Shown: positions 33,310 through 60,236 of the stretch, piece by piece
Position numbering within the stretch: the first letter of the stretch is position 1
Layout: the number at the start of each line of letters is the position of its first letter
Assembly (NCBI GenBank): GCA_002633005.1
Contig: NMRA01000160.1
Location: 502,277 to 566,276, forward strand
Reading direction: 5' to 3'
Length of the DNA: 64,000 nt
From: Phoronis australis
Taxonomy: Eukaryota > Animalia > Phoronida
Notes under the pieces: model-generated
Told to the model about the DNA's origin: nothing
The model's database searches: none
Seen by the model: the letters and a program-made list of their open reading frames with translations, nothing else
Made by a program: the position numbers and the translations under genes

Positions 33310-33789
33310 TCAGAAGTCACCACAAAAGCTTTGACGCAATTTTGCTGTAATCACTGGAGGTGCGCTCTGGGGCCTTCGCGATGGTCGGTCGTGGCGGTCT
33401 GACCAGGAAGCATTGGTTTTGAAGTTACAGGTTGTTGGACGTGATGACGACTGCTTGGAAAACGTAGCCACTCCTCTTGGTCCTGTTTTTCTCGGTGGTG
33501 ACTTACGTTCATAGTAAAAGGACCGCTTGGGACGGGTTTTGGCGATTTCTTTTTCGTTTTGGATCTCCTCTATTCGCCTGTGTAAACCATGCAAAGATGT
33601 TTGATACTTCTCTTGATGCGATGACACTGACCGTATCCTTTTATCCGTTTTTCTATCCAGCAAATCCAGTTCCTTCGTGAGAGCTATTTGTTCCCGTTTG
33701 TTGGCGTATCGCTGGCCGTTGCTGAATTCACTTTTCTTGATTGGCCGGTGCATTCTCGTCGTAGCGTTATTGCTTGTATTCAGTGACAT
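33310..33789 (-). CDS. Small basic coiled-coil protein (159 aa), CCDC190/DUF4697-like
   Basis: ATG at 33789. Heptad-rich segment NKREQIALTKELDLLDRKTDKRIRSVSSHQEKYQTSLHGL, followed by a disordered basic tail containing RPQSAPP. AATAAA lies just after the stop (33298-33303). The family resemblance is from memory. Confidence 0.6.
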   Translation of the reverse strand: MSLNTSNNATTRMHRPIKKSEFSNGQRYANKREQIALTKELDLLDRKTDKRIRSVSSHQEKYQTSLHGLHRRIEEIQNEKEIAKTRPKRSFYYERKSPPRKTGPRGVATFSKQSSSRPTTCNFKTNASWSDRHDRPSRRPQSAPPVITAKLRQSFCGDF

Positions 33790-36700
33790 CTGGTGGCTAG
33801 GCGTGTTTTGACATTTGCTATATGTCCGTGTCCTCCAAATTAAAACTCTCAATTCTTGATCTCACTGAGTAGAAATGGCTTGTAAGCTAAAAATGTAAGA
33901 AATGAGAACGATTTCTCAATGTACGTAACGTCACCTTGTGAAGAATCTAGATGATTCTGTCACACCAAATTAGTTCCACGTATTTTCAGCGAAGCGCATC
34001 AATAAAATGCGACGTGATGGAAACAGTCAAGCCTGTAAAGAACAAAAATGTACGATGTTACGTAGCACTCTGTTTTCAGTACGTGTTTCATTGCATATCG
34101 TCTTGTAGCTGCTTACGCCGATACCGCTTACAGTGCTAAAATGTCGTGGTTCATATCGCTTTTTGCACAAAGCACTTCTTGTATTTTCTCAAATATAAAA
34201 CAAAAAATTCATCCCGAATCGGATGGTATCACCGGTGTATTTGCGTTTGTGAAGTTCGCCCGTCACTTTCTGATGCACCATCAGAAATTCAGATATAATG
34301 CCTCGAAAAATTTAACGCATTATTCCTAGAATATCAATCGGGATTTTCCTGAAGTGCGAAAGAGTGTCGCTTTTAAAATGCTAAAAACGTTTAGTTGGTT
34401 CTAGTCTAGTCCGTGTTGGTGCAATATTTTTTGTTTGTTACATCTTCCATTAACAAAAAACTATCTTTAGTACTGGTGGTGTCGGCCGAGTGTGGGGTGC
34501 CGACGCTTATTCTTCTGAGGCAGCGCGGGCTAAAGCCTATTGGTCAGATGACTGTGCAATCGTTGGCATACCACGTCGTTTATAAATGCTGTGTAGGGTT
34601 CGAAAAGTAAATAAGGACTTTTCTTTAACGCTGGTGGCTTTCCTAAGCAGTAAGCTCCCAGGTTTGAAAATATTTTTGCCGAAGATGCTCTTCTTAACTT
34701 AAACACTAGTAAAAACTATGCTCATGTCAATTCAAGCGCGCTAATGTTTTAAGACCGGTAGCTGACTGATTCAGCACCTTACTATTTTCACAGAGAACTG
34801 ACAAGAATTTCCGTCATGGATCTTGGAAATAATAGCTTGAGAAGACATGGAATTGAACCCACCAGACCACTGGTCACGGTACCAAATAACAATAATACTT
34901 GTAAGATAACTATTTCTGTCTCCAAATTGTTTGATATTATGGAACATTTGTATTCTTCAAACATGGAGTTTAGCTATCGGTTTTATGTCATAAATACGAT
35001 GACGTTGCTGATTGCCGATCACTTACGGTGAAAGGCCAACGAGTTTCCTCGAGCATGTCGAGAAAGAGGTAGCCCTACAAGATACCCAAGACATTTCCGA
35101 TATTAAAATTGCAAGACAGGAATCAAAACACAACCTGATCCTTACCCGTTTACTCCTTTTGATACACATCTCAGAGCAGCCTTCCTAGCGGAGCTCGTGA
35201 GAGACATCAACTGCAGATCGGTAAGCGCAGCAAAAGAGTATGGTCTGATTAACAGCAGCGCAATTAAGAACTATTCATTGGTAAACTAACATCTCCAATA
35301 CTTGCGTTTGGCCAGTGGCTGTTTTTTGCCCATCACCTGCACTATAGGAAATCGTTTACTGCAAAAAATCGATCGTCAAGCCATACACGAACGATATATG
35401 CTCTCCACACTACGGTGATCATTTATTATTGATGAATTAGTTGATAGGTAATGTTTTGTAAGATTGTCACTTAATTAAATCCACATGCCTTACAGATGTT
35501 TGCCGAGCTTTTGGGAATTGACATCGTTTTTCTATTCAATTAGTCTATTAGGCAATGACGATTTCACATCAAAGTACACTAATTAAATTTCCACTGCACG
35601 TTCCTATCACACATTCTTCTACGTGGTACATCAACCGTTACTCAATTTCCGTATTTTAAAATGGTATAATCGGCGACAAAGCTGAGTATTTGAGATCAAG
35701 AAGGATTCTAACCCACGTCCTCAGCGGTCGCAGTCCGACTTTTTACTAGTACAACTAAAAGCAAAAAAATGCGGCAAGTAACGGTAACCGAGTGTTTTAA
35801 GAGTATTTACCTGTTAAAATCACCGGTCTCAATTTTACCTAATTCTGCCAGATGGCTGGACGCCAACGCTGGGAATCGGCGATTTTTAATAAAATCTCAA
35901 AAATAGATAAGATTTGCTGTTTATACAGCAGTGATCAAATTAGCTGACGACTTCGATAAGTCTGTCCTACTCAAAAATAATCTTCAAATGCGTTTTTCGG
36001 TCCTATATTCGATCGTGTTCCTCAAAATGTCCTTTGCCGAGAAAATTGTACACTGTACGCAGCCCAAAGATAGCCGGAATACGCCGCTAACCATGAATAA
36101 TATTTGTATATTAATAATATTCTGTTTTCTCACGGTGTAATACTTAGACGGGCTGTAGTCACTTTTATAGTAGTTCACAACCAGTGTTATGTAATGATAT
36201 CGGTAGCCAGTTATCTAGAGACGGTTGCTCGGTACAATCTTTAGACTACGCAGGAACGTTACGGCTCCTCGGTCGCGTAAATATTTCCTCCACTAAAAAT
36301 ATTCAACACTTCAAGTAAAGGCTTTTTGACTGCGTGCCAGAAACATTTATGGAACTCCAATTTATTTCATAGAGACGTTAATGTTTTTAAAAATTTTTAG
36401 AACATAAAACATTCACCCTCGGTTAAAAAGTCATCTAGTTGCTCATCACGGGGACATTTCCTTCGCGATAGGTATAAGAGTTGGAGTTTCCATTTGACAC
36501 ATTGTGGATACAATGGAGTAATAAGTACTAATTTCTGATTTATTTCAGCATGGTCTGTTATCAATCGCCCATTTTTTCTCAAGTTCTCTTCTATAATGAA
36601 GCAAAAATTATCTACTTTCCCCGTTCTCAATTAACTGGACCTCGCTTCTCATCATATGCCCACGAACTCTGATCAGTTTTTATCCTTTAGTCTAAACATC

Positions 36701-40124: not shown

Positions 40125-41194
40125 TGGTTAAAACAAACACAGGCATCATATTCAATGTATCAAGCTCAAAGATAATGAAGAAAATTTGCAAGTTCGCCGC
40201 TGATCTTCTACCAGACAGAACTTATGGAAGGAGGCAAAGGCCATCTCTGATGAATTAAATACATAAAACCATCTACAATTAAACACGCATACGCTACATT
40301 CTGTCCGGCCATCACCATTATAAAATGTAACGCCAAAACATTGCATACACCACCACGTGGAAACTATGTTGTCCATACAAAAGCTTACTATAAGAACATA
40401 TACAAAGACATGTTGTTAATGTACATTTCTTTCACAATACAAGTTATATAAGTTCTGTGCTCATTCCGAGCAGCAGTTGACTATTTGTTCTGCTAACTTC
40501 TAGAATCATGACCCAACTAGTTCCAGCCACTACATTTCCGGTGAAGTGTACTACAAAGGTCACTTATGATCGACATGTTTGCCTGTATAAGTGTGTGTGT
40601 GTGTGCACGCAAAGGCCTTCATTGAAGGAAGTCTTATCCTACTCAGTTCTACCGGCAATTCAAATTGAAATGATCCTGTTGATCCTTACATTTACACAAT
40701 ACGACTTTCAACGTGACCCCCTGTGCCATCGCTGAACGGTGTTGCAGTGCTGAGTAAGCGGTGTTGAAATGCCCAAAAAGAACCCATCACCAAGTCCCAG
40801 GAAGCAGGCAGCCAGAGGGGAGCTGGGGGTCAGTGATGAGTTCCTCACAAACCATAGCACTGCAGCAGCGTTCACCCAGACGGCTGACGGGCTCCAAGTG
40901 AACGTGACGAATGATGAAGGCTACACTTTCGAAATGCTTCAGTTGAGTCCAAGTAAAGCAGTCCCACTGTTCTGCTAGTATTCAAGTTCACTTGTTCGAT
41001 TGGTAGGAGTCTTGTAAAATTTTAACAACGCCGTTTTGACATAAGTAGATAACCACGGTATGAAGGAGTCCACCGAAACCTTGGCGAGAGATAAACTGTG
41101 GTCGCAGTGTATTACAAAGCTGATGAGAGAAAGCTACTTTCTAAGGCTAGCCAGAAATTATGTAAGCGCATTGTACAATTCACAGTCGTTCTTC

Positions 41195-41277
41195 CTACAT
41201 TGCCACCAGATCTGACAACGTTTGGTCCAACTCTGTACTAACGTCCTTGTACCTCTCCTGTTCAACACTCAGCTCAC
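41195..41277 (-). CDS. Tpm: Tropomyosin terminal exon 9c: (G)[26 protein letters not shown]
   Basis: ttgtag acceptor, phase 1, 83 nt to TAG. Closest of the three to the canonical ERYK..S.ELDQT tail. Confidence 0.9.
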
Positions 41278-44200
41278 CTACAATGGGACAAGAGTTGCAA
41301 ATGAACCAGTACACCAGGCACAGTGAAGCATCGAGACAAAGCCATAAGGACACTAGGGGAAAAAACATTTACTAACATGTTAGTAATCCAGTACATGCTT
41401 GAAATGATTTGCTTTAGTTTATCAACTGTTTGTTGTGTAGTGAACAATAATCGCACACTTCATCAAAGACATTGGAACTGGTCTGAGGGTGGGTGAGTAA
41501 AAACTTCCTCGTACACAATAAAAAAACAACGCATCAATGCAGGTTAAACTATTAGTACAACTCAAATGCTAATAAAGTAAGCCAGTGCAGTGCTAGATTT
41601 ACACGAGGAGAGACACACGAAACCAAAATCAACAACAGCCAAACGTGACGGGTAGCAGGAGGGACATTCTTCCTCCCTCACGCACCGCGTTCTTGTGAAC
41701 AGTGGTCTTCCTCTCTTCAAACCTGCAGTTCTGTTCTCATTCACTGCAATTCTGTTCTTACGAACACATGTCTGTCATTATCATAATGCCAAACATATTC
41801 CCAGTTTCATTACACGGGACCATTGGATACATCGTACCAAGCACGTTCTACCTAATGTCAAGCACATGCCTCGGTCAACCAAAAATAGGGGTTCATAAGA
41901 AAGTGAATGTGTGCGCAAGAACTAAATTGACATACGTAACAAAAACTTACAGCTTGTGAGAACAGAACTGCACTCGAAAGACGTTGCTCACGAGAATGAT
42001 TGCGATTCATAAGGGCGGAAGATTGTCTATCCTGGGTAGGCAACTAAACAAGGAAATATTGTAGAAAAGATCTCGTAACTTACAGCCGCACAATAAACTC
42101 ATCACATATCACCCAGTTCCCTACACATGTCTTCGAATTGCTCCTGATATTTTGCCCCCTTGGCTTTTTCATCTTGTTTCTCCGCTGCAAAAGCCAGGTA
42201 ATCTAACAACATGCGATCACGAGAAAACAGACAGGTGGCAGAGATCACCTTGTGACAACAGGTAGTACTGGACCACAGCAGCAGTCAAGGTCACTAGACA
42301 AACAGTCTAAAACCATTGACAGTCGGTCAAGTATGTAACCCTTGTCCAGTCATGACGGGGGGCATTCAATCAACCGAACCTCGCCTTCTGATAATTGTGT
42401 GTGTCTAGCGAATACCGATAGAGGAGCTATTGTGCCGAAAATGTAGAACGATGTCTAGCAAGGGAGACTACTGCAATCAAGGAAGCGCGCGTGTGTATGC
42501 ATGTGTGTATGTGTTCAAGCGTGTGTGGTTTTGTGCGAGCATATTTTTCTCAATTTTGCAGTTGTTAGTGAGACACACTGTGAGTGTTCAGAGTGGGACT
42601 TCGAAAGCATAGTTAACTAGTCGAACAGTCAACTACCACATTTACTACTACTACTACTTCTACTACAGTGGACCTTCACCCCAGATGGTTGGAGGAGAGC
42701 GCAGGCCGTTGCCTGGCAATTGCATTACAGCAAGGGCTGGTGTTCCAACTGGCAAATGCTCGGCATTCGTAAAGAATATAGACAGTGATGACAAAGCAAC
42801 CCAGAGGAGAGTCAACAACCGAACGTCATCCACACAAATCACGTGTTTGTGTGTATGCACAACATGGGAACCTCCAACACAGGCACCAAACAGCTCGGTC
42901 ATTTTCGCTCTATCTTGATACTACACTAAACAGAATGCTCGCAACCAAAGAACCTCTTGCATTCAACAGAGAAGCCAAATTCCGTTGTCTACAGTACAGT
43001 AGAGTCTTAACCACTTTCTACAATTGTCGAAACTTCCCACATCAAAGTTTTACAACGATGACAAGACAGATGGAAATGAATCTCAGATTCACTTCGTTAC
43101 CGACAACACAAGAGAGGTTGAAAAGGAACACATCACATAGCGGGGAATACGAAAAGCAATTATAAAGAAAAATGTTACCCAGCAACAGAGTGACACTGGA
43201 AAGGGAGGAATGTTCAACCATAGATTATGCCGATAAAAATTCTAAACTTCGAAAAATCACTTTCACCTTCCGATTTTTCCACGAGTTTCTACTTAGTCCG
43301 CAAGCAGTGCACTTTAGCTTCGCACAAATGGGTAATTGAATTTTACATCAACGTGACGAGAATAGGTGCATGAGGAACACCTGACTCACGAAACAAAGTT
43401 AAGTGGCGTCACATACATTTGAGGAAAGGTCGAGGACACAAGCCTCGATTTTGGAAGGCGACAGCAAAGCTGCCACTTCATTGCGGTCTATGGTTAAACT
43501 GAGAGAAAAGTCAAGTGTTTTGTACTGTTGTGAGCTTTTACACTCTCTAATCCAGTGTGTGTGGTTATGTAGCGGGCCTCTTACTAAGCTAGACGTCGTT
43601 GAGTTCACCGAGGGCCATATCCATTTCTGCCTTGACTTGAAGAGCATACTCTTTCTCTTTCACCACTTCGTCTGAAATCATGCCACCACGCTCAAGGTAG
43701 ATGCATGCCTCCTGTCACAACTGTGGACAGACTCTGGCCAGATGGCTATGTGACCACCAGTGCTACTGCAACGCTGTTGCCAACGGTGAAAGATGACCAA
43801 TGTTCCAATACATAACGCCAAAGGGTTTATATTCACAGGCTTAGACTAATAGAATAGACAATCCTGCTCAATGTGTAGGTAAATGAAAAACTACAAACTG
43901 CCTCAGTATGAAGAGATCTCTTAGCATAGCTCATTGGTCATTTTACTTGAATACAACTGGTTCTCTGTTTAAGATTATGTCAAACCCTAGAAAAATAACC
44001 AAATCTGGCTAACTTAAGAAAACCATATCTCAGAAATAGCCAATCAGATTCATTTGGAACATTCAGATATTATGCTTTATGCACTGTAGTTCTAAAAATG
44101 TCTGTATGGCCGCATAAACATCCAATCAGATGGCTGTATTTTCAGAACACATCCAATCACATGATTGTCTTTTAGACAGAAATTTAAAAAAATGTCTTTC

Positions 44201-47200
44201 TGTACATTTAAACATCAAGGTAACTAAAGAAAGAGACAGCTGAGGTCAGAGTACAAATTCTTACAGAGATGAGCTTGACTTAACATTCACCACCTTAACA
44301 CAAAGGTCACCGGGTCGCTAGCACAGTTGGCACGTCAGCGTGATTCAGTCAAAACTGATGGTCACTCACCTGGCTGGAGTCTGGCCAATTGGCACATCCA
44401 GTAATGGATGAACCAAACAAACTCACTAATTAACTTCACAATGCAACTGAACCAATATTATAAGAAATTAAACATATCTGCTGTTATTCTTAAGTAAACA
44501 TGCCATGAACCTTGGTTCTCAGGATCACACAGGCACAACGCCATCTAATGTCCGTTTTAGGTGAAAGGCAAAAATCAACTACCAAATGTCTACAATAAGG
44601 AATGCCATGCCGTTAAATCACTGAACTCTTAATGGTGAAGGGACCATATGCACAAGAAGCAAATGGTGAACTGGTTCGAGTCAAAACTTGTTGCTGCATG
44701 CGGACTATGGTTATGCCAGCTATCGACTTTAGAGTGGATTTCAAAAACAGCAGTCTTTATTCGGCAAACTGGTAACAGGCATTGTACAACTTTCCTAGTT
44801 AAAGCCACATACGAGCAGTAATTGGGTCACGAGTTCAAGTCAGAAAGAGCTAAGTACATATGCTGATCTTTCAGTGGAAAAAGAAACATAATTTGTGACA
44901 CAACATCAAGTGAAAAATTATACTTTCTCCTACAATACTTCGCTGAAACCAGCATGAGTGAGGAAAGAAACCAAAATCATTGGTGTCAAAAGGCCAACAG
45001 TTGTGAACTACAAAGCTCGTGGCCATGAAAAAATTCCACTTGACTAAACATGTATTCTTATGAAACTAGGAATGCCGACTCAACACACTTGTAAACTATA
45101 AAGGTTTTTTATGTACATGGTCTCAAGGCACAGTATGTGACTTTAACAGAATGAGGCATTCACTCAGGACAATATTTACAATGAGCAACTTTAAAGTCGA
45201 CATGAACTGCCAAACATCAACTGTCATTATAAAGGTGCCTCGAGAGAACGTAACCCCATTTGACCAGCATGCAACAGTACCTTCAAGCCTGTCCACCTCC
45301 TTCTGCAGTTTCTGTGACTGTCTCTCGCCTTCTTGAGCGCGAGACTCAGCCTGAAACAAACGGTGAAACAAGGTTAGACAATCATACAATAAGACTTGAG
45401 TTCACAGTCGTACACCCACATTAAGCTCAAACATTCTCAACAAGCAATTCAATTGCTCGAGAACACCAAACTGTACTCCAGATTCCACTAAAAAACAGAC
45501 TAATACCATCACATCGAATCTGAAAGTTTTCCTTAAGTATGCTCCTACGAGATTGGTCAATTTTCGAGTCGAGCCTCAAATACCGTGTGAGCCCAAGTCT
45601 TCATAAGAATCAACTCATAACAGGGTCAGCTGACAAGTGCTCAAGAAATGAACAGAGCGCATAGAGACCAGTCTCTTTATAAGACAACAATACCAAATCA
45701 ACATTCATAACCAGCTCCTGGACTCCAGGATATGAACCTGTCAGAAACATTTCACAAGAACGACAACAAACTAAAATAAAAGTGCATGTGAAATCACACA
45801 ACAGTACGATAAACCCTGTTGTAATGACAAGCTCAAAGGTGGCACTAATGGAACAATTCTACTTTTAAAATAAATGCATGTGTCCAGTTAGTCGTGCGAG
45901 ACCTTATCCACAACGAGCCCAAGCAGTGTCACAGCTTTTTCTCAATTAGCACAGCTTAATGAACGCAGACAAAATGACCTGCAACGACTGGATGCAAGTT
46001 GAATTCAGGTTATAGTCACTTACAGGGGTTCGGCATTTTGAGAACCTCTACAGAACAAAGAGTGTCAAACTTCTTCTCAAAATCCAGGATTCCCACAAGT
46101 TACTATTGACAAATTCTACACGGTAGCCATCCGCCACGACAAGGAATTTACAGAAAAGTTGGAAACACTAACCTATATTGCTTATAATGTTGCCAAGATT
46201 TATATGGTCAAGGACTTTTCAAGGACATTTGCAGGTAGTTCATGGCATACTCAATGCAAATTCAAGACCACTAAAGTTAAAGTTTGTGTACATTAACCCA
46301 AAACACTGGAAAGTCTTTAAGAACTGCGCACCCTCCACAAGAAGCCTGAGGTGCCCAGTCTACGGACGATACCTTACCTCCTTCAGTCTAGCAGTCAAGT
46401 CACGAATAGCTATCTCAAAAGTATCTTCTCTTTGGTTGGACTGGAAAAACAACGCAACAACTGCACTCGTACTCACAACAGTTACTAGAAGTTATCTCCG
46501 AAATTGGTTCCATTATTAGATGAAAGATTCTTTGTACACAATCCAGCACAGAACATAAATGGGCGAATGGAATGCTTTGCCATACAATGCAACTTTGGCT
46601 GGAATTTTTCAACTGAGAGACATAGTGGAGCAAGCTATCAGCCATTAGGTTACGATGCTAGCTAGGGTGCTTCCTTAACTTCTTGAGCCCGTTCTCGCGC
46701 TGCTTTTCTGACGTAGCCCGTCACGGTATCCGTCAACAGCTTACACTGTGCTGCTACAGCCCCTCCTCTCGTGGAATGTCACAATTTTATACGCGTGTGC
46801 AGCAGGAAAATTGGGATACCCACTCACTTAGAGAGCGGACATGAAACACGGAGACCCATTCATTAGGGAGCTTCCGGATAAAAATCGGCCTTTCGTAGGT
46901 TTCTGTTGCAGAAATAAAGAAGATTTGTAGAAGTTAATTCCCTAACCCTTTTGGAGAGATTCTTGGACAGGGAAATTTTAAAACAATCAAGACCGAAACA
47001 GTAAAAGGTAACAGGGAGGCCATGTTGTCAAAAATTCGCACATCCCTTCTATAAAATATTATTAAAATAAATATATGATATTGAAAACCCCTCTGCACAT
47101 TCGTTAGAAAAAAAAACATTCTGTCGTTTTCAACTTCTTAAGTCAAAGCTTGTGTAAAAAAGTACCCTTTCGTAGGAAGATAGGGTCTTCTATGAGAGTA

Positions 47201-50200
47201 CCCTCCAGGCATTACCTTGAATCATATATTTTGTTGTTCTTTTTGCAAAGCAGTGACATGATATTGTATTGAAGATTGTGGTCATTGGTCTATCTATATC
47301 TAGAGGACAAAACACAGGTCATGAAGGGGGATTGAAGATAAGGAACAGCCACCTGGTGTCTGTGTCTGACAACGGCAGCTGCTAGCCGATTGTGTACAGA
47401 GAATTGCATGCCTAACAGACAGCAGTGTTTGAGTGATACTCAAATGTCTCACCTTACTTGGAGAGGAAATAAACAACTATATGCATTTAGCTCACAGTGA
47501 GCTTCTAAACCAAACACACTTAAACAGATGTTTTCCTGAATTCTTAAATAAACACAACACTAACTTTAACAGCACACTTACAAAATTGGATAACTTAGGC
47601 AAAACATGCAGTTACAGTTTCAATTAAGTTACAGTTTCAAGTAGACAATATCACTCAGTGGCAGTGACTGCAGCCTTGCATGCGTGTGGCGACACCATGA
47701 GTGAGTCAGATAAACTAAAAGCTAGCTACATCAAGAACAGCAAGGACTAGCAATAGCACTAACAACTAAGTTGCCTGTATGTTCCGCTTTAAAGCCACAC
47801 GCAGTGAAATCTCCAAAAACCATCGTTTTGGTGCTATTTTCGAATGAAGCCTTTTATTTTGACTGGCCCTTCTAAATGGTGAATTAGCACATTCACAGAT
47901 CATTTCAACAAGAACACTGAATGCCACTAGCAGACAGTTTTATTCACAATCTTGGTTTAAAGTATTGCGCAGGCCTTTTATGAGGGAAAACCTTTTAAGG
48001 CTATAGCTCGAAAACAACAGTTTCGGAAGACATTAAGTCAAAACAGAGTGTTCCTAGACAATTGAATAAAGCAAGACTATCAGTTAAACTAGACGTGGAT
48101 CAAGATGGCTCAGGCAGGCCCTACACCGCTACTAGCTGCAAAGAAAGAACTCTTCTATAAGCAATCGGGACGATTGGAGACGTAGCATGCAGCTTTGAAA
48201 CACTTCCCCTCATCCAAACATGCAGAAAATAAAAATAGCCTCTTCCCACAACAATAGCCCAATACTATTTGCAAGCTCGAAACAGAAACTCAAAATGCAC
48301 ATCTTCAAAAAGCTATCCCCAACAAATGAGCGCGTTAAACATCTACACTCGAAACTTGCATACATATTTTCGACATAAAAAAATCATAAACAAACTTGTG
48401 CAACTAAGTTCCTGATCTCATTTCTCAAGTCGTCCGCCACTCTGTAAAGTTTGAAAATGTGCTGTACAATAGCCACCATAGATACATCCTGTCAACGTTA
48501 CCGTATAGCACAGTGGTCACCGGGGTACAAAAGGACCGTGTTTAACATACACAGACATGTAATACAAAGAGTATGTTATCTGACTGTTGGTCAAGTACCA
48601 GTTTTTTCAGGTGGATATATTTTGAGAAATCTATCAAGAACTTCTGCTAATGAAGGCGATTATCAAAACTGCATGCTACCGATGACAAGAAGCCCTGAAC
48701 ACAAGCAAGAACTGAAGTTTTTGAGGAGAGCATTGCTACGCTGCTGAGATAATGTCAACAGAAACAATGCAAGCCTCTGAAGGGACAAGAGCTTTTTGAA
48801 CATGCTCAACAACAAGACTATGGACTATCCAGGACAGCTATTCTCCACGTCAATGCTGGAGAACATGGGGAAACAAATTTGCGGCCACAGATCTTTTTAG
48901 ATGCGGTAAGTCTGCCGAGAAGAATTGTTAGTTTAAGCACAGGACATCAAAGTGAACTAGGGATTCACAGGATTCCACTAGATGGCGTCGCCACCTCCTC
49001 CACGTGTTCTCACAGATGCGCACCATGTATACCCACGAGAAATCTATAGAATGACAGATTATGCTTCCAAATGCACTGAGAACCATTCTAAGCAGCGCAG
49101 AGGATATCTAGCCATAACTCCGCTCTTGAAATTTCAGATTCACGGTGTCAAATATAACACGGTGGTGCTTAAGTGTGATACTGATACTGAAACGTTCCGC
49201 ACTTCAGACTCGTAAAATAGTGATACTAAACAATGGTGTGGTTTGGAAACTAGTACGTCTTGGAGGAAATGGAAATAGTCATGTACTTCTACTAATGGGG
49301 AGAGAGGGGGGTGTGCCGCTGAACAGATATCCTTTTCCATGAAATAACTTCTGGCAGGGAACAAACATCACTTCCAAAACACCTGAATGCAGGTTTGAAA
49401 TGTCCAGATCCAAACTCTCGACAGGGGAACACAGTTATTCAATGGCACATGCTACACCCCCTATTCCCAGCCCTCCCCACCCCNNNNNNNNNNNNNNNNN
49501 NNNNNNNNNNNNNNNNNNNNNNNNNNNNNNNNNNNNNNNNNNNNNNNNNNNNNNNNNNNNNNNNNNNNNNNNNNNNNNNNNNNNNNNNNNNNNNNNNNNN
49601 NNNNNNNNNNNNNNNNNNNNNNNNNNNNNNNNNNNNNNNCCCCCTCCCCCCCCGCCTAAAGCAACAGCGAGCATCACTGGCATAACAAGCAGTAACTGAC
49701 AAGAGCATTCCATGCATGGTATACCTCCTGTTCACTTATTTCGAGTGACTTCATGTTATTACCAACCACTTTCAGTTCATCCTCGAGTTCCACGATCTTA
49801 CTGTAAACACACACACGTGCTCGTTAGCTGCCGGGAACAAACCACTGGGTCACAAGGAAAAACATGTTAGAATCACCCGTAGGAGCAGTCTAGAGCCACC
49901 GTCTACACTCAACTGGAGCAGAGAAATCATAAACGCGGTGCGGAAGGTTAAAAAAACAAGGATTTTATTGCGTGCTAAAGAATTGTCCACCCTTGTTTGA
50001 CTGAGGTTACACAGTATTAACTAGTGGCTACTAGAGAATTGAGTGACGTGGACTAACAAGCCATGACCAGAGTGTGTGGACAACACAGCTGGCCATCATG
50101 GTTGTGTAGCCCCACGTCAGCTCACAGAAAGGTTACAGATAAAGGGTACATCGAAAAATGACTTGACACACGTCGATCAAGTGACAAGACAGTATAACAA

Positions 50201-53200
50201 CAGGGTGCACATCAGCCGACAAAGACAGAACAGATTCGACTGGGCGCTTCAGCGTTTGCCGAACAGACATGCGCCAAGACGAACTAGACGAGGAAGGGTC
50301 AAAGAGCAGGAGCCAAACTGGTGCCAGCACACTCGCAGCTGCTGCGAAACCACATCAACGAGTGGGCGGGTTGTACCTGAGAGTTCTGCACTTCAAGTGT
50401 TTTCATGTTGTTACCGACAATGGTGAGCTCATCAGTCAACTCCGAGCATTTACTACAAATCAAACAGTTGGGTCATGGATGAGAACACATATGCATAACA
50501 TTAGTACACCAAGAACCTACTGCATAATTATACATGTTACAGACAACACAGAGAATGGTAGACAGTGATCCTGCAAAGATTGCTGTTACCTGAAATTTAA
50601 GAACAAGAGCAATGTGCCGACAGGCACCCGTGGTGAGGCATCACAAGGGGCAAGGCTACTATACACAAGTTCGATATCTTTGTGTGCACACGAGAGCTGA
50701 TTGTCCAACCAAATACTGAAAGCACCAATTTACATGCCTTCTGTGATTTCTAATGATAACACACTTTCTTGGTCTCAACTCAATTCTTAAGTTATTTAGA
50801 TTCACGGAAATAATTTCTGGGTTTGAGAAAACTGGCCCACACCTGTAAATTCTCATAACGATCCTTTAAACGGTATGGCAGATTGTGGATGTCAGAAAAC
50901 GGATGCAAAAATAACAAAAATGGCCATCAGGTGGCACAGAAAACATCAAATCTATCCGAAAATGGGAAGGTGTTGTTGTCACCTAAAAAGAAGCCTTTTT
51001 GCCAAATTTCATGAAAATGCATTACTGAAATCCAAAGATACAGAGAGAAACATAAAAAGAAACATTTTGTCTCTAGGGGCACTGTAGTATCAGGATCAGT
51101 TCGACACTCGTTACTGTTTGTCGACGACTCCATAGGAATACACCTTTCAAATTTCACAAAGCTCCTTTAAAGAGTTTAAGGAAATTCGGCCGCAGATGCA
51201 AAAATATTCACCACTAAGGGGGCGACACCGTAGTCAGACCTGTCCAAAAGTCAACGTCAGTCGTGGCCTTTTCATCAACACATCAGTAAATGTTTATAAT
51301 GATCCTTTGAGCGGTACGACAGAGCGGACACCAGAAAATGGGTGCAAAAATAACAAAAATGTCCACATGGTGGTGTAACATTCGTTGAATCTGTCTGAAA
51401 ATGGAATGGCATCAACACCTCCATATAAAAAACCTATTTACCAAATTTCATTTGAATCTGTCAAGGACTCCGAAGATAATGACGCAAATGTAAAAAACTA
51501 AAATTGCCACTAGGGAGCACAGTGGTATCCAGGTCGATCGGAAACTCGACGTAGTCTGTCGTCAGCCACATACGAACACACCTGCCACATGTTAGTAACA
51601 TCCTGCAAGGGTATACATTTATAAATACATGGGTGCATAAAAATTACGCCATAAAACCGAGACGAGCACTTGCTCAAGATCTGAGAATGCTGTTTAAAAA
51701 TGACAGGCAAGCACGGTAAAAACACTCTTCTTAGAAGCAATCTAAACAGTTTCAAGATTAGCCAAGAAACTGAGCAGCCAAGCACAGTTGAGCAGTTATT
51801 GCTTAGCTCAAGTATAGTAAAATCCATTGAGTGATAACACTTCAAACCACATGGTTGGAAAAATAAGATTAGCAGATAGACAGACATGGGTGACCGACAG
51901 ACGATTGGATGCCACACAGGCGGGCAGAGAGATGATGCAATATTCACCGCCACTGTGGAAGTGGGTGAATAAAAATTGACACAAATTGGTACAATTTGAT
52001 AACGAACCACCCCGGAACAAAACAAGCAAGTCCTGAAGGCTGTTGTCTCTGCAAAAGAAAAGAACTGTGGTTTAACAAATATAACTCTTGGACAGACCCC
52101 CACCAGTAAGCTGAGGGTGACGTGGTGCGGCAGAATGAGTCGACATCCACCAGGGCCCCTCCTAAGAGCTGAAGGTCAAAGGTTGTACAATGACTTGCTG
52201 GGATGGCACCTTGTTCACAAGCCTAAAGCGAATCGGTCTATAGAGCGCGCTGCCAGGGATGGACCACACATGTGTCCTTCTTACCTGGTCTAGTTGCACC
52301 TGTATGGACTTAACTGCGATATTGGCCGCGTCCAGTTCTGTCTCCGACTCCTTCAAGGTTCTACAAAGTCAAATCTCATGTCATGCACAATACTGAAAGC
52401 AAGGTGTCTAAAATTAATGCATACCGGCACTCAAGTCGATTGTGAATCATAAAATACCCATAGCAAAAGCACTGGAGTTCATATCGGTGCTACGGAGATT
52501 TGGTTACATGATGTGAAAGAACTTACATCTTGCACAGTATAATAAGGATTTGTAATTGGTATTCAGCCCATTTCTAAAACTTTGGCGAGTACCACGGTAA
52601 ATCGGTTAAAGGTCTCGTGATTTTGTTTACAAAGACTCATCTCAAAATATAAATTTGCTCAGATAGCTGAATGTATGACACAGTTATGTGAATAGAAGAG
52701 TTCTTAGATCGCATAAGGCTAACTGTTGTATGTACTTATTTTAGTATTAATATACTCGTATCAATAAGAAAATATAAATATGGGACCATATCAAAAATTC
52801 ACAACGGTGTAATGGTATGCAGCTCTAATCAGCACTACTTTTCACATGGAATAACAATTATATAAATTAGGAAAAAACCCATTCTTTATCACCCTTTTTC
52901 CAGATTTCATAGTCAAATTTGTCAATACCACTGCTACTCAATATCTTAACCAAATCTGCCGGATGACACCACTACAGTTAAAAATCTTTTTGAACGCTCA
53001 CATGAACCGTTGGTGAGAACTTGTACCACGGGCGCACCCAGGGGGGCCTTGAGGGGCTCTAACGAGACTGCCCCCATTTGGCGAAGTGGGAAAAAAGGTC
53101 CGCCTCAGAGAAACAAAAAGTCCGAAAAAGTAGAAAACGAGACAAAAGTCCACTAAAAAGGTAGGAAGTACCAAAATTTGGCGAATGCGCAATTCATAGC

Positions 53201-56200
53201 TCTGAACGTAACCCCCGTTTTTAGTAAAAGGTCCACATTCTCAAAAATTCGAGCCCCCCCCCTCCCATTTTTAGGCTGGGTGCGTGCATGTGAACAAAGA
53301 AAAAACCTATTTACTAGTGCAATGTGTGTGTACACCAAACTGAAGACTTTTTACCGTAATAGTGAACAGCTGCAATTTCTAGCAATGTAGTCTTCAAAGC
53401 AGCTAGAAATGGGACAAACTAGACATTTTTCATAATGCGTCGTGCTTCTGTGCCCTTAATACAAAGGCGACATATTAAACAGTTATTTTGAAAAACTAGG
53501 AATCTATTATGAATTAAGATACTGGGTGCGAAAAGTTTTCATGTAGTGTAGCATTTTTGGGAGTTTTAAGCTAGAAAACCCGGTGTGCATGGACCTCAAA
53601 GATTTCAGGACAACAATCGGATATTGCGTTTCCTCAATTAAGATAACCAGCTCCATCAGTTGAACAGCTGCTGCCATCTATCAGCAAACTCTGTAGTGGT
53701 GGGACTGAGATTCGATTCAGAGGGTTTCCAAAAAGGGTGAGCATACGAATTTTGGGGGGATTGCGTTATGGTTCAAAGCGGACTTTCTTGTACACATTAC
53801 GGAGACGTAGGCACGCAAAGGATCTGTCTGAAAGGCATTTACATAAGGTTTCCTGGTCCATGCCTCCTTAAACGTATTATCTATGAAGGTAAACATTATC
53901 TAGCAAAACTGCCAACACAAACAGAACAGTGCTCCAATTCACAGTGATTAGCTAATATCATAGCAAATGAAATGGAACACAGAACNGTGCCCTTAATACA
54001 AAGGCGATATATTAAACAGTTATTTTTAAAAACTAGGAATCTATTATGAATTAAGATATTGGGTGCGAAAAGTTTTCATGTAGTGTTTTGAATCAGTGAA
54101 AAACATGCGTTTTTGGGAGTTTTAAGCTAGAAAACCCGGTGTGCATGGACCTCAAAGTAGATTTCAGGACAACAATCAGATATTGCGTTTCCTCAATTAA
54201 TATAACCAGCTCCATCAGTTGAACAGCTGCTGCCATCTATCAGCAAACTCTGTAGTGGTGGGACTGAGATTCGATTCAGAGGGTTTCCAAAAAGGGTGAG
54301 CATACGAATTTTGGGGGGATTGCGTTATGGTTCAAAGCGGACTTTCTTGTACACATTACGGAGACGTAGGCACGCAAAGGATCTGTCTGAAAGGCATTTA
54401 CATAAGGTTTCCTGGTCCATGCCTCCTTAAACGTATTATCTATGAAGGTAAACATTATCTAGCAAAACTGCCAACACAAACAGAACAGTGCTCCAATTCA
54501 CAGTGATTAGCTAATATCATAGCAAATGAAATGGAACACAGAACAAATGAACAGCAAATTCAATCCCTTTCAGCTGCACTTAAATCTCGGCAATGGTCTG
54601 ATATAACGTGCCCGAATTTTGAAAACCAGTTTTCTCAATTGAATAACTGGCATCAAACTGATTCTCAAAATACAGGTGCGTTATATTAAGACTATTGCCT
54701 AAATGTCTCCAGTTCAGGACACAGCATGGAGAAAAAGAGATTTCATTTTCTCATGATTTAATTTTTTCTGGCAGCACCACATCGAGGCTACGCAATTTTC
54801 AACTTCTATACCACTGTGACCATATCACAATATTTTAAAGACTTTAGGCCATTCACTACGTCAGAAGCCTTGAATCGCAAAAAAACACACAAAGCTGGTA
54901 ATTACTGTTGTCCCAAATCGGTGAAATTCAACTGAAACATTCAGACGTCAACTTATTCAGCTGTATTCACCCAGAGCTAATTTTTCACTGGTGGTCCCCC
55001 AACATCACTCGTGAGTGGACAAGTTCACAAATTACATGTTGGAGAACACGCCATAAACAACAGGTTTACTTCAAAAATCACCAACCCTTAACACAAATGG
55101 TGAAAATGAACACAGCCAAACGGAACCAAAATAAACACAAACCAGGACCGGATTGACCTAATTACATTCACCTAGACTGAGACTACTTACGATTCGGCAG
55201 CCTCCAGGCGAGCTTCAGCACGCTCCAGGTCAACTTCATTGATGGCCAGCTTGCGAGCAGCCTGTTAAGGGAAGACAAACTTATTAAATAGTTGGACAAT
55301 GTGACAGTGCGTTTTGTAAGATATCGGTTATTGTGAAGACTTGATGAAGACTTAATTAAACGAAAAACAGGATTCTAAGAGAGCCAAAACAAAGCCTAAA
55401 ATTTTCCGTGGAATAGTCAAAACACCAAGTGCAGTGCAAAAATCGCGCACATTCATTAGCACCAGAAGTTACGAGAATGTTTAGGAAACATTAAAAAAGA
55501 TATATTTACTTAAGGTTTACTACCAACTTGGCAAAATTTCACGAGATCATTAGAATTAGGCAACAGCATTACATCTCACTGGGATATGAGAAAAAAAATA
55601 AACTTCATGCAATATTTATGTTCCAGTAACTACTGGCAAATTTGTACAAAAACAGTGGATGATTATCGTAAATCTTCAAAAGAACAAAACGTTACCGAAC
55701 AGCGGATAAAGGATAAACATGTCATAGAACTTTCACGATTCCATGCACAAATGCTAGCCTAATAAATTTACATTTGAATTAGTTTAAAGGCACATCCAGT
55801 AAAGATAATTCTCGTTGAACGAATTTCTTGTTGAGACAAGGTTTTGATGTCCCTGTGCAGTGCACATTAGAATAAAACTATCTCATTGAGCAGAAACAGA
55901 ATTTTTGCACATGTGGCTGCAATGAGATTTTTCTAACGCTTTCTAGTAACATTTAGAAATTGTCTGCAAATGCACAAGACTTGGGTGCTTCGGTCAACAG
56001 TCTAGAAAATTAACATCATTTCCACATAGATTCAAATCTGGGACTTTTTAAATTAGAAGCCAAAGGCTTTGCCAACGCGGCCTGTTATACTAAGTACGAC
56101 AGTTTAACTAAAATTTTTATCAATGCTGAAAACACTGATTTGGCACCTCTCGGGACACTTGATTTTTCAAAGCATTGAAAATTTCCAAATTCATTGACTT

Positions 56201-59200
56201 TCAACAAATGAACATTCCACAGGGAACGTTTTGCTGCAGTTTGAAGTTGACAATTATTTTTGACATTCGAAATGGTACTGCATGGGACTTTAAAAGGGTT
56301 AACAAAATTCAGACAACTGTAATACAAGCCAAAAGTCTTCAGACAAAATGACCTGGAATTCTCCAGCATGACGGCTGAGCGAAAGCCAATTCATTGTCAT
56401 ATTGGGGGAATCAACGGGAAGGCAAATGAGGTGACTAAGCCATTCTGCTACCAGAATTTTGTCACTCTAATATCAGTAATTTTTGCTTTTCACGCAATTA
56501 ACTATCACGAAGGGTTACTGGTATTTTGTCTGAATACTTTTGTCTTGTACTGTATAACATTGAACAACATGTTAGTAAAACACAATTCATAATTTTCTGA
56601 GGACACTCCAAATAATCGGCTGAAATATCACCTTGGGGATTTCCCCTTGAAGTAAAATCGAAAATGAATACTCATCACGGTCCTTTGGAAAAAAACAAGC
56701 AAAACAATTTTTTATCATATATCAGCTTGGATTGTCCTCCTTTTCTTACAAATGGTGTGCAACTTTTCAGCTACTTTTACGCAACTTTTCAGCTACTTTT
56801 ACAAACCACCACTGAAACCAAGAATGTCAAACAACGCATAAGCGCATAAGCACATCACCAAGGTAAGATGTCGTTGCACATTTTCATACAAGTTGGTTGA
56901 CATTTGGAAGGCATTTGACGTAGTGTAAACACAATAACAACTAAATCTGCTAGCACCATGCAGGTCAGTGATACCTAGGTCTGAAATCAATCAATGCTGT
57001 TAGTCACAATTTCATGGAAGAAATCTACAATTAATGTGTGAGGCATTCGTCATGTCATCAAAAATGCACAGTGAAAATACAATTCTGATTCCGAACACAA
57101 ACGCACATACTCTCACTCATACGCGTGCACAGACGAAGCAATATTATGTTCCAATCACGACGAAGAAACTACCGCACCATTATCACCACACAATCTGGAG
57201 TGGGGGAAAACGGAGACGACAACGGGTCACAAACTGTTAATAGTCTCGTTCCTTGGTTGCACCACACGGACACTCCGACAATATGGAAAATATTTGATGC
57301 TTTCAACAGTGACCTCAAAACGCAGAAGAAAACCAGCACCGTTGATGGACATTTACACCCACCATATATCTTCATACTAATGCCAAAGTCTGGGTAAATG
57401 CCCGCCCACGAATTTTACGCAATATCACTTTTAAGCATCCACTTTTGCTTGCGTCCAATTTAACACCCATGTTTAGATTTTTTGTTCGATATAAACGCCT
57501 GGCCTGAATAAGTACAGAAGGTAGTTCGAAACCACTACAGCAAGATTTCTTCCCTTAAGCACTCAATTTATTTTTCTAGATGACCTGCTCTGAGACCAAG
57601 TTGAAGCATCTAAAGCAAAGAGTCAACATGAGCGAGATACACAGACCTCGTCAAACTTGGTCTCGGTATCCTTGACAACAACTCGCGCGGTCTCCACTTC
57701 TTTTTCCAGTCCAAGGATTTTCTCTTCGTCCGCAATTGAACGGGACTCCATAGCTTTTCTATTTCTAAACGTGCAAACGTAAAAGAGCAGGTGAGATTCG
57801 AATGCATGACAGCCACTGAACAGAAATCATGAGATTGAGAAATCTGACACTAATAACATCACCAGGCATCAGGCATGAGAAGACTCCATCATCCACACCT
57901 CATCAAACTTGGTCTCCGTATCAGAGAGAACAACGCGCGTGGTTTCCAGCTCTTTTTCCAAACCAGCAATTTTGTCCTCCTCTGTGAATGACCGAGACTC
58001 CATTGCTTTTCTATTTCTAAAGGGGGATGGTAATATTTTTAAGAGAATGAAAAAAACCTCAGGGAGTTCCCGGAGATCTCGAGGGAAAATAAACACCAGA
58101 GCGTAGTCCATCTTCTGTCTACTGGAGAGAAAGTTCAAGCACTAAAAGCAAATGTCTATCTAGCAGCCAACACGCCACCTGGTGGCCATAACAACTGAAA
58201 TGATAAGCGAAAAAGCAACTAATTATATGTCACAGGTTGTAGAGCGTTCTCCGGCACATCTAGATGTTGATCTACAAATCTAATCTTGGTTAATGACTCT
58301 GCAGCCCTCCAGCCAGCCGCAGTCGCATGCACTGGCTACACTGTGCTTATGCATGCAGCTTCACCTCGTCAAATTTTCTGTCGGCATCTTCAGCTATGAG
58401 CCGCGCCTCCTTTAGTTGGTCCTCTAGCGTCTCGCACCGCTCCTCATCTGCAGTGTTGCGGCTCTCTAGAGCCTTGCGCCCTCTGTGGAGCAAACACACA
58501 AACCACACACACAACATTAGTTACAACAACCACGAACAACAACAGTATCAACAACGACAACAATGATGGCAATCCTTTCGCAGTCGCAAATCTGTCCCAA
58601 TCAGAAAGGGAAGTGCGAACTGAAAAGAGCACAGCACTCAAGAGAGGGGGTGCCATCGAGTGACCTACCTCATCAAATTTGCGCTCAGCCTCTGTACGCA
58701 ACTCAGTGGCCTCATTTAGTGCCGCTTCGAGTGTTTCTATTCTCTCCTCGTCTATAGCTCGTCGATTATCCAGGCTTTTTCTTTGCCTGATGCCATGCGG
58801 GGGAGAAAGGGACATGCAAGGTTAGTTGAAAGGTTAGCTCTACCAACTATTCTGACAAAAAATTGGCTCCTGTTGGTGTGCGTCCTAAACTGTTCGCACA
58901 CACTGAAAGCACAAACCCAAACAAATAACTCTTTCCGCATAATTTTATTACTTCAAAGACACAGACTATAAAGACAACAACTGTCAAAGCAAAGCTACAT
59001 ACTCTGCAAGAAAAATAAAGATAAAAATAGCAAATATAAAAAAGGCATAACAAGCTGGGGTAAATGATTTGATTGACAGCAGTTGCATTCGCTTGTTCTT
59101 GATAGGTTTTCTCATCACTACAAAAACGGTGCTTTTGACCTTGACCCTGTGCTGGAGAACAATAAGGCAGTTTTCAAAGTCTCTCCTGAGTTCTTTGAAA

Positions 59201-60236
59201 TTCGTGGGAAACGAATCCATCATGGTCTCTGGATTGAGGTTCAATTTTAGGATTTGAGCACAGGGGGGCTAATTTTGCTTGTCCACTTCAAGACAAGAAG
59301 CACAGAAATGCTTGCGACTGTTTGTTTTAATTGTGTCATAAATTTATGAAAGGATTGTGTGGTTTTGCTTCAAGCTACAAAAGTTAGAAGCAAAACCATC
59401 CTGCAGTATATAAATTCTAACCCTGGAGACATGTATTGAGGATTGGGACTTTGAAATTGTTTTGAAGCACAACACCCCTGTGGGAGTGTAAAGAGTTTGA
59501 TACAGCCACAACTGCAGGACTCTGTGCTAGAGATAAGGGAAAGACAGACAGGAAATGGTTACCATCAGACTAAACAAATCACAGCAAAGATATACATTGT
59601 AAAAAACAAACTCCCATTAGATAGAAACCCAACATCATGTATTGGATGAACACTTTAAGCAGACAAAAAAGCCATGATAATTCTTCACCTATTTTGTGAT
59701 TTTTTGTTTAACAAGGACTAGTTTCCTATTTTAATGTCATATAAATGGGTATTTCAACCCGTATCGGGAATTGTTAGCAACGGCCATCTTACTCTCGCGT
59801 TCATCATCAATACTGTATAATGTATATACCACCGGCCTAATAAGCACATAACAGACATTTCTGTCCTCTTGTGGAGGGGGAGATTGTGTTTTGTGCACTC
59901 TCAAAAATGGTGATAACAGTGAAGTAACTGGACCAGGACCATATAATAACAATAATGAAGCGTTCACAGAAACATCTCTCTTAGCGATTTCACATTTTAG
60001 TTACTCAACCACAGGACATTGCCTGTAACTTCGGCACATTTTCAGTAATTGCCACTAATCCAATTGTTACTGTTAATATATCATACGGACAAGTGAACTC
60101 ACCTCTCGCTCTCATCAGCAGCTTGGGATGCCTCATCTAGTTTGGCTACCACCTCATTGAGTCGTTCTTCTGTTAAATCAAAGTTATCTTGCAGGAGTGT
60201 CAATTTATTGTTCAGGGATATCACCTCGGCATCGGC
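41195..60236 (-). CDS. Tpm: Tropomyosin, exons 3-9 with three clusters of alternative exons; exons 1-2 outside the window
   Basis: Exon sizes 134/118/71/76/63/70/83 nt and their phases match canonical tropomyosin exons 3-9. Signature sequences: [60 protein letters not shown]. Confidence 0.97.
42102..42184 (-). CDS. Tpm: Tropomyosin terminal exon 9b: (A)[26 protein letters not shown]
   Basis: ttttgcag acceptor, phase 1, exactly 83 nt to TGA. Confidence 0.85.
43589..43671 (-). CDS. Tpm: Tropomyosin terminal exon 9a: (D)[26 protein letters not shown]
   Basis: tttcag acceptor, phase 1, exactly 83 nt to TAG. Confidence 0.9.
45281..45350 (-). CDS. Tpm: Tropomyosin exon 8: [23 protein letters not shown]
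   Basis: 70 nt, tttcag / gtactg. Confidence 0.95.
46378..46440 (-). CDS. Tpm: Tropomyosin exon 7: [21 protein letters not shown]
   Basis: 63 nt, ttccag / gtaagg. Retains E218. Confidence 0.95.
49484..49639. other. Assembly gap (156 N) between C-rich runs
   Basis: Run of N characters. Confidence 1.
49725..49800 (-). CDS. Tpm: Tropomyosin alternative exon 6c (canonical type): [25 protein letters not shown]
   Basis: 76 nt, ttacag / gtatac, phase 2 to 0. Confidence 0.95.
50377..50452 (-). CDS. Tpm: Tropomyosin alternative exon 6b: [25 protein letters not shown]
   Basis: 76 nt, ttgtag / gtacaa, phase 2 to 0. Confidence 0.92.
50602..51975. mobile_element. Non-autonomous Helentron/HINE-like (pearl/DINE-1-type) element with internal repeats
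   Basis: Starts aacaagagc with the palindrome gtgcc-gaca-ggcac. Internal ~440-bp-period repeats (gatccttt...gcaaaaataacaaaaatg at ~50860 and ~51301). GACA-type microsatellite at ~51875-51905. Terminal hairpin tattcacc...ggtgaata followed by an A run. Confidence 0.65.
52285..52360 (-). CDS. Tpm: Tropomyosin alternative exon 6a (divergent): [25 protein letters not shown]
   Basis: Exactly 76 nt, ttgtag / gtaaga, phase 2 to 0, open frame, same heptad register as 6b and 6c. Confidence 0.85.
53027..53290 (-). mobile_element. MITE family B copy
   Basis: TIR cacgggcgcacccag / ctgggtgcgtgcatg. Flanks tgtac / tgaac (degenerate 5-bp TSD). Homologous to 11408-11640. Confidence 0.75.
53450..54544. repeat. 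Near-identical direct duplication (53450-53985 and 53987-54544) joined by a single N; probable haplotype artefact
   Basis: The copies differ by a few SNPs and two small indels. The junction is one N at 53986. Confidence 0.9.
55191..55261 (-). CDS. Tpm: Tropomyosin exon 5: [23 protein letters not shown](S)
   Basis: 71 nt, taacag / gtaagt. Confidence 0.97.
57647..57764 (-). CDS. Tpm: Tropomyosin alternative exon 4d: [39 protein letters not shown]
   Basis: 118 nt, gtttag / gtctgt, phase 2 to 0. Confidence 0.9.
57899..58016 (-). CDS. Tpm: Tropomyosin alternative exon 4c: [39 protein letters not shown]
   Basis: 118 nt, ctttag / gtgtgg. Confidence 0.9.
58365..58482 (-). CDS. Tpm: Tropomyosin alternative exon 4b (canonical type): [39 protein letters not shown]
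   Basis: 118 nt, ccacag / gtgaag. Confidence 0.95.
58669..58786 (-). CDS. Tpm: Tropomyosin alternative exon 4a: [39 protein letters not shown]
   Basis: 118 nt, catcag / gtaggt. Branch-point-like ACTAAC at 58821-58826. Confidence 0.92.
60103..60236 (-). CDS. Tpm: Tropomyosin exon 3: [44 protein letters not shown](R)
   Basis: 134 nt, ctacag / gtgagt. Confidence 0.95.

Follow-up and report, generated by a model that had tools for sequence, protein, structure and literature searches.

The window analysed here is a stretch of 64,000 nucleotides (nt) of Phoronis australis (contig NMRA01000160.1, positions 502,277 to 566,276), in which a tropomyosin gene is carried on the minus strand, the sense strand for the features described below. 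In the original prediction, ten copies of (T)GCATG, the word of Rbfox splicing proteins, had been noticed beside three clusters of alternative exons of this gene and attributed to a single regulator, which could set exons 4b, 6c and 9c as the muscle isoform. The gene, the sites and the RNA that bears on this proposal were examined.

Exons 3 to 8 of the gene measure 134, 118, 71, 76, 63 and 70 nt, respectively, and are followed by the last exons. Exon 3 (60103-60236), exon 5 (55191-55261), exon 7 (46378-46440) and exon 8 (45281-45350) are present as single copies, no second copy of any of them having been found in a profile scan of the window. Tropomyosin exons of equal length are repeated in tandem in cluster 4, which contains four copies of 118 nt, 4a (58669-58786), 4b (58365-58482), 4c (57899-58016) and 4d (57647-57764), and in cluster 6, which contains three copies of 76 nt, 6a (52285-52360), 6b (50377-50452) and 6c (49725-49800). 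The first gene model had two exon-4 copies and was corrected on this point, since 4c and 4d, which are 79% alike, had been overlooked. These clusters may already have been described in the work of Irimia et al. (2010), which reportedly deals with the duplication of tropomyosin exons.

When the 14 exon peptides were searched against the Pfam profile PF00261, 11 of them matched, at profile positions rising in exon order and with one score above the curated cut-off, and no match was obtained for the 6a, 9a and 9b peptides. The best family-profile scores within the clusters were those of 4b, 6c and 9c. These exons are called canonical because of these top scores, a basis which is independent of the motif; 4a, 4c, 4d and 6a are divergent. 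By its exon 5 and exon 6c peptides, each 96% like named mollusc proteins, the gene is lophotrochozoan-like; its exon 3 is at most 57% like any named protein. A run of 156 N bases (49484-49639) masks the 6c intron from +86 past the donor.

RNA was mapped over the region 40,300-53,400. The material consisted of two raw read sets, X3 and X4 (about 18-19% of each run; bulk, tissue unlabelled), and of two contig sets guessed to be RNA, X1 and X2, the latter being labelled as another organism yet 99% alike in 3 records and possibly non-independent. No sequence set found to contain this region is recorded as RNA. Short-junction counts are open to bias, and a contig can attest that a form is present but not that one is absent. 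The first mates lay mostly on the plus strand, as expected when a minus-strand transcript is sequenced from a stranded library of the usual kind. In both read sets, exons 9a (43585-43671, 87 nt) and 9b (42084-42184, 101 nt) were joined to 9c (40300-41277, continuing past 40300), with 89 reads in X3 and 91 in X4 for 9a-9c, and 110 and 119 for 9b-9c. These two exons, which had been taken as terminal, are internal cassettes that each hold a stop codon; 9c is coding, as far as 41195, only if both are skipped, and is otherwise 3' untranslated region. Exon 9c was the last exon of all the spliced forms seen and was used with both 6b and 6c; the RNA shows it to be the default last exon and not the partner of 6c. 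Each of 6a, 6b and 6c was joined to exon 7, no copy-to-copy joint was found among the 15 joints examined of 54, and the 3' end of exon 5 appeared as a loose end beyond 6b and 6c.

Two further observations concern these exons and their introns. Reads entering 9a numbered 141 in X3 against 89 leaving to 9c (101 against 91 in X4); a part of the 9a transcripts may terminate in the following intron. Intron 7 (45351-46377) was covered about 1-fold in its middle bin, whereas most bins of introns 6 and 8 reached a depth of 6-14, which suggests that introns beside clusters are removed more slowly.

All ten (T)GCATG sites were recovered on the minus strand, six as TGCATG and four as GCATG. Upstream of 4a, TGCATG (58813-58818) stands between an ACTAAC element and the acceptor, with the hexamer starting at -32 and GCATG at -31, and a second GCATG is placed at -12 (58794-58798). 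The 6a acceptor has TGCATG at -27 (52382-52387; GCATG start at -26), the 9a acceptor has GCATG at -37 (43704-43708) and -12 (43679-43683), and the 9b acceptor has GCATG at -30 (42210-42214). On the donor side, TGCATG is found at +8 and +34 of 4b (58352-58357 and 58326-58331), at +9 of 6c (49711-49716) and at +8 of exon 8 (45268-45273). No GCATG occurs within 40 nt of the splice sites of 4c, 4d or 6b, the nearest one to 6b being at +105. At +4 of the 4c donor (57890-57895, minus strand), TGGATG is one base off the Rbfox hexamer and might, speculatively, be a decayed site.

The sense strand holds 34 GCATG sites from 41,398 to 63,750. Ten of them fall in the 900 intron positions lying no more than 40 nt from one of 14 acceptors or 11 donors, against 24 in the 20,398 other intron positions. 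This 9.4-fold enrichment (Fisher p 9e-7) ranked GCATG first among the 1024 pentamers and survived correction (Bonferroni p 9e-4). GTGTG came second (9/899 vs 25/20,398; Bonferroni p 0.008), and of this pentamer seven overlapping copies lie in the 4b and 6c acceptors (58483-58522 and 49801-49840, minus strand), right behind a CTAAY branch-point-like word.

Furthermore, the side on which the motif lies followed the type of exon, as had been claimed. Within the window it was present downstream of 2/2 canonical exons vs 0/7 divergent ones (p 0.03), and upstream of 4/7 divergent exons vs 0/3 canonical ones (p 0.2). The three donors with TGCATG at +8/+9, namely 4b (GAG/GTGAAG), 6c (GAG/GTATAC) and exon 8 (AAG/GTACTG), all lack a G at intron position +5 (G+5). 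Among the window donors without G+5, which include that of 6b, 3/4 have the motif, compared with 0/9 of those with G+5 (p 0.014, an association spotted post hoc). This module, a donor-side UGCAUG together with a weak donor, is unusually tight.

Related tropomyosin loci were collected from metagenome contigs scanned with an exon-4 alignment. The best 80 of 315 confirmed loci were taken; 30 show spliced exons with introns, and in 49 of the 80 exons 4 and 5 are joined, hence there is no intron between them to read. Clusters are borne by L001, L002, L018 and L019, which stand for three lineages, since the introns of L001 and L002 align and these loci count once. The four loci are called annelid-like on the strength of exon 3, which in L001 and L002 resembles a named Paralvinella protein at 89-91%. 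The fragment L010 (1,002 bases, one exon visible) was kept outside the cluster counts, and L056, a frameshifted transcript, was excluded. The windows used for counting (25 and 55 nt) and the exon-class cut-offs were chosen post hoc, with the loci already seen.

In the four cluster loci, GCATG occurs within 25 nt past 8/8 third or fourth exon-4 donors and 0/7 first or second ones (p 2e-4), or 6/6 vs 0/5 with L001 and L002 collapsed (p 0.002), about 3% per donor being expected by chance. Seven of the eight sites begin at +7 to +9, with the hexamer as close as +6, and all eight donors start with GTGA and are without G+5, like 4b. The 4b donor site is conserved in 4/4 cluster loci and in L010: the proximal site is kept after the orthologous donor in L001, L002, L019 and L010 and lies farther out in L018, and a second site is also present in L001, L002, L010, L018 and L019 (+24 to +61). 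In all five of these relatives (L001:10127-10139, L002:5647-5659, L010, L018 and L019), TGCATG and then a GTTGGG-like G-run were observed behind the third exon-4 donor; 4b of the window has no G-run.

On the acceptor side, GCATG lies within 55 nt upstream of 11/13 divergent exons of clusters 4, 5, 6, 8 and 9 vs 0/20 others in the four loci (9/11 vs 0/17 after collapsing L001 and L002). Acceptor-side sites are found to recur in this way when exons are matched by class, not by orthology. The GCATGG context of the site at -12 of 4a is shared with a site at -18/-19 of the first exon 4 in L001, L002 and L018, and the divergent exon 9 of L002 has sites at -44 and -13. Over five related loci, GCATG occupies 26/3,036 positions near splice sites vs 66/41,450 elsewhere in introns. 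In 20 de-duplicated loci with a single visible exon 4, the motif was found at 0/20 exon-4 donors, many of these loci being short, so that a hidden cluster is possible.

Of 11 transcript contigs of lophotrochozoan type, which were chosen by eye and had all been selected on the basis of a canonical exon 4, 9 take the canonical 4-6-9 path. Mixed paths are seen in L022, with canonical 6 and divergent 9, and in L040, with divergent 6 and canonical 9, these being assemblies and not single molecules. The transcripts L013, L022 and L071 have the same stop-carrying exon-9 cassette layout as the window. At the protein level, read-through translations in exon-4 gene calls (147 matches in 150 proteins) gave motif-compatible peptides in P0009, P0031 and P0016, which are codon-ambiguous and serve as leads only, and a protein search with the 40-residue exon-4b peptide scored 0/20 candidates.

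Comparable systems have been described. Rbfox proteins activate from downstream and repress from upstream (PMC2777236); in F1gamma, for instance, Fox-1 silences from upstream (PMC2018636). The mapped cases (F1gamma exon 9, calcitonin exon 4, c-src N1, 4.1R exon 16, alpha-actinin NM/SM and egl-15 5A/5B) are like the window in the word, in its sides and in the paired copies (PMC2777236, PMC2018636). The Fox site at -34 of calcitonin exon 4, which blocks SF1, lies between branch point and AG, as do the acceptor sites of the window (PMC2777236). GUGUG is the word of SUP-12, which acts with Fox proteins in egl-15; GUGUG stretches are nearby there as here, but in the window they precede the exons expected to be activated (PMC2777236). 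In contrast with the mapped cases, the donor-side sites of the window, like those of its relatives, abut the splice site (+6 to +9) at donors without G+5, an arrangement read here from the sequence. In GFPT1 exon 9, Rbfox promotes U1 recruitment at a weak GAG/GT donor which, as in the window, is accompanied by an intronic UGCAUG; this donor depends on the UGCAUG, and a stronger donor removes the need. GFPT1 exon 9 is, however, a mammalian cassette exon outside any cluster, and its donor has G+5 (PMC10514471).

Tropomyosin splicing itself depends on Rbfox in two other animals. Upon knockdown of Rbfox1 in the fly, Tm1 moves from exon 30 to exons 28/29, losing the 27-30 joint and gaining 27-28/29, which is the direction predicted for 9c vs 9a/9b (PMC8742874), and exon 6a of rat Tpm1 is controlled by RBFOX2 (PMC8419188). 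These are single events obtained by knockdown, and the accessible parts of the two accounts mention neither a motif pattern over all clusters nor a donor-abutting site. Rbfox1-U1 action has been asserted for human TPM (PMC12905364), and the accessible part of PMC12040844 contains nothing about isoforms. The same layout of stop cassettes and common last exon is tabulated for C. elegans lev-11, which is not assigned to Rbfox in the accessible part of PMC4165533; the window gene differs by its four 118-nt and three 76-nt exons. A full-text literature search, with most subscription journals outside its reach, gave nothing linking Rbfox, tropomyosin and lophotrochozoans or annelids.

The regulatory pattern is real, partly conserved and of a known kind, and its membership of the Rbfox class is likely; the sites are most likely bound by Rbfox because of the word, its enrichment, its conservation and the published position rule. 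We consider it probable that these Rbfox-family sites favour 4b and 6c and suppress 4a, 6a, 9a and 9b, as one input among several and not as a single switch. Rbfox bound behind the weak donors would favour 4b and 6c; at +8/+9 it would aid U1 at a donor whose pairing ends at +4, as the cases of GFPT1 exon 9 and 4.1R exon 16 suggest by analogy. Inside the acceptors, it would suppress 4a, 6a, 9a and 9b and, from its place between branch point and AG, would keep the 3' splice site from being recognized early, by analogy with the calcitonin -34 site. Skipping of 9a and 9b would leave 9c coding. With 9c used by default as the last exon and no site close to 4c, 4d or 6b, other factors are needed in this scheme; such cell-type factors would settle the final combination, the GTGTG-rich acceptors of 4b and 6c being candidates.

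Much more tentatively, lophotrochozoan tropomyosin might possess an "Rbfox-gated donor", in which G+5 is missing, UGCAUG abuts the U1 helix (+6 to +9) and Rbfox forms part of splice-site recognition. This donor would have persisted at exon 4 in distant lineages, and would have been rebuilt at 6c and exon 8 here.

The RNA allowed the use of exons 6 and 9 to be compared between X3 and X4. Reads joining exon 7 numbered 58 of 460 in X3 and 43 of 436 in X4 for 6a, 127 and 189 for 6b, and 275 and 204 for 6c. The reads leaving exon 8 numbered 141 and 101 for 8-9a, 110 and 149 for 8-9b, and 210 and 273 for 8-9c. From X3 to X4, the 6c share fell from 0.60 to 0.47 (p 1e-4) and the 6b share rose from 0.28 to 0.43. 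The 8-9a share went from 0.31 to 0.19 (p 4e-5), a change that was not significant by the 9a-9c junction (p 0.32), and the direct 8-9c share went from 0.46 to 0.52 (p 0.04), or from 0.51 to 0.57 by the downstream junctions (p 0.14). In X3, the 6c share (275/460) was above that of direct 8-9c (210/461, p 2e-5, or 210/409 by the other junction, p 0.014), a gap of 9 to 14 points; because of this excess, some 6c transcripts are likely to carry 9a or 9b. Exons 9a and 9b together took 48-54% of the reads, vs 10-13% for 6a. One contig of X2 runs 6b-7-8-9c.

Several points weigh against the reading of activation from downstream and suppression from upstream. From X3 to X4, 6c and direct 8-9c, expected to be used together, shifted in opposite directions, the former down and the latter up. 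In the X1 contigs, 8-9c was the only exon-9 joint seen, with 70% of the contig depth on 6b and 30% on 6c. The 6c data of this species fit silencing at least as well as activation. Exon 8 is constitutive in the window gene, which leaves no obvious target for its donor site. A second exon 8 does not account for this site in the window, although exon 8 is duplicated in L019 and in named mollusc proteins. Mutual pairing of the two 4b sites is predicted, although it is no better than in shuffles (z -0.6). As regards the relatives, the conservation expected of the motifs holds for the exon-4 part, which recurs in three lineages of annelid-like genes, and fails in L002 and L019 at the donors of canonical exons 6 and 8, where a close site was found in 0/2 each (none within 25 nt of the donor orthologous to that of 6c, and exon-8 donors both with G+5). 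Exon 4b is the only exon 4 of the window with a clear orthologue there (69-77% vs at most 51% for 4a, 4c and 4d). In the loci with a single exon 4, GCATG precedes 4/10 exon-5 acceptors, with a 2.0-fold excess near splice sites (p 0.047), and 14/20 exon-4 donors are without G+5 yet motif-free. The post hoc windows and cut-offs belong to the same side of the balance.

Extended to every site, silencing becomes a distinct explanation, which we regard as unlikely. In that case Rbfox at +8/+9 would shut 4b and 6c by crowding the U1/U6 site, the upstream sites would shut 4a, 6a, 9a and 9b, Rbfox-rich cells would make 4c/4d-6b-9c, and the exon-8 site would gain a role in delaying its donor until the distal 9c is transcribed. 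The exons free of the motif are exactly 4c, 4d, 6b and 9c, and 6b and direct 8-9c climb together through X3, X4 and X1 (0.28, 0.43 and 0.70 for 6b; 0.46, 0.52 and sole joint seen for 9c), as the 6b-7-8-9c contig of X2 would also have it; the hexamer lying as near as +6 in relatives fits as well. These data come, however, from two read sets and two contig sets without tissue labels, and the rule in the literature is that downstream sites activate (PMC2777236). Activation is preferred because each of the four exon-4 copies of L001, L002 and L018 has a site (two upstream, two downstream), so that silencing by all sites would leave no exon 4, and because the all-canonical path dominates the related transcript contigs.

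A strict switch, in which the 4b-6c-9c muscle form is set by one regulator and the divergent exons are used where that regulator is absent, is still less probable. The side of the motif fits the type of exon in the window and in relatives, and together with the conservation at exon 4 this part of the proposal of a single regulator over three clusters is supported; the fixed 4b-6c-9c linkage is not, since 9c is also reached from 6b. The contig of X2, the exclusive 8-9c joint of X1 at 70% 6b, the excess of 6c over direct 8-9c in X3 and the share of 9a and 9b, far above that of 6a, are all contrary to strict coupling, as are the lack of sites at 4c, 4d and 6b and the mixed paths of L022 and L040. 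A single muscle switch is too simple: Rbfox would restrict the options and leave the rest of the choice to other factors.

The sites might instead be read by another protein or pair as RNA, GCAUGC being self-complementary, in the manner of a docking site and selectors, which seems improbable. CATGC, the reverse complement, is also enriched near splice sites (6/900, rank 4), although not significantly once corrected, and 5/6 of its occurrences overlap a GCATG site. The predicted pairing of the two 4b sites is what such a model would expect. However, between-cluster duplexes are as strong as within-cluster ones, the strongest of 45 pairs joining 4b with exon 8; 0/5 local folds beat their shuffles (z -1.3 to +1.8); and the base after GCATG at 8 donor sites of relatives is A, G or C, so that the palindrome is lost while GCATG is kept. 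Docking/selector pairing was rejected, as no cluster-specific duplex was found among the 10 motif elements, to which the search was limited. Chance or base composition is very improbable, for, even though the test was framed after the motif had been noticed and the TG-rich introns are rich in GCATG, the enrichment survives correction over 1024 pentamers and the motif recurs at the orthologous donor of independent loci well above the chance rate per donor given above.

Other features were observed around these exons and farther along the window. In the intron between 9b and 9c, opposite-strand reads at a depth of 15-19 (41611-42047) point to an antisense transcript or a repeat. Intronic repeat fragments at 50890-51520 and 53070-53270, likely pieces of mobile elements, drew many loose-ended reads, on both strands near 53,100. 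A near-identical tandem duplication of about 550 bases (53450-54458), which has one N at 53986, is possibly an artefact of the assembly. On the minus strand, a 287-codon open frame (26867-27730) holds a complete Forkhead domain (PF00250, E 2e-34) and may be FoxQ2-like, and a 183-codon open frame (33310-33861) has no Pfam match.

Rbfox control of tropomyosin splicing has already been reported for rat and fly, and the literature search found no description for lophotrochozoans or annelids. The part of the pattern that most deserves experiment is the donor-abutting site at weak donors, the series of which offers a natural gauge of the minimum distance between Rbfox and U1, and of whether closeness helps or blocks. 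With the motif pattern kept at exon 4, which can be read from the DNA itself, it could be tested in a compact way whether the muscle programme of Rbfox extends to this animal branch.

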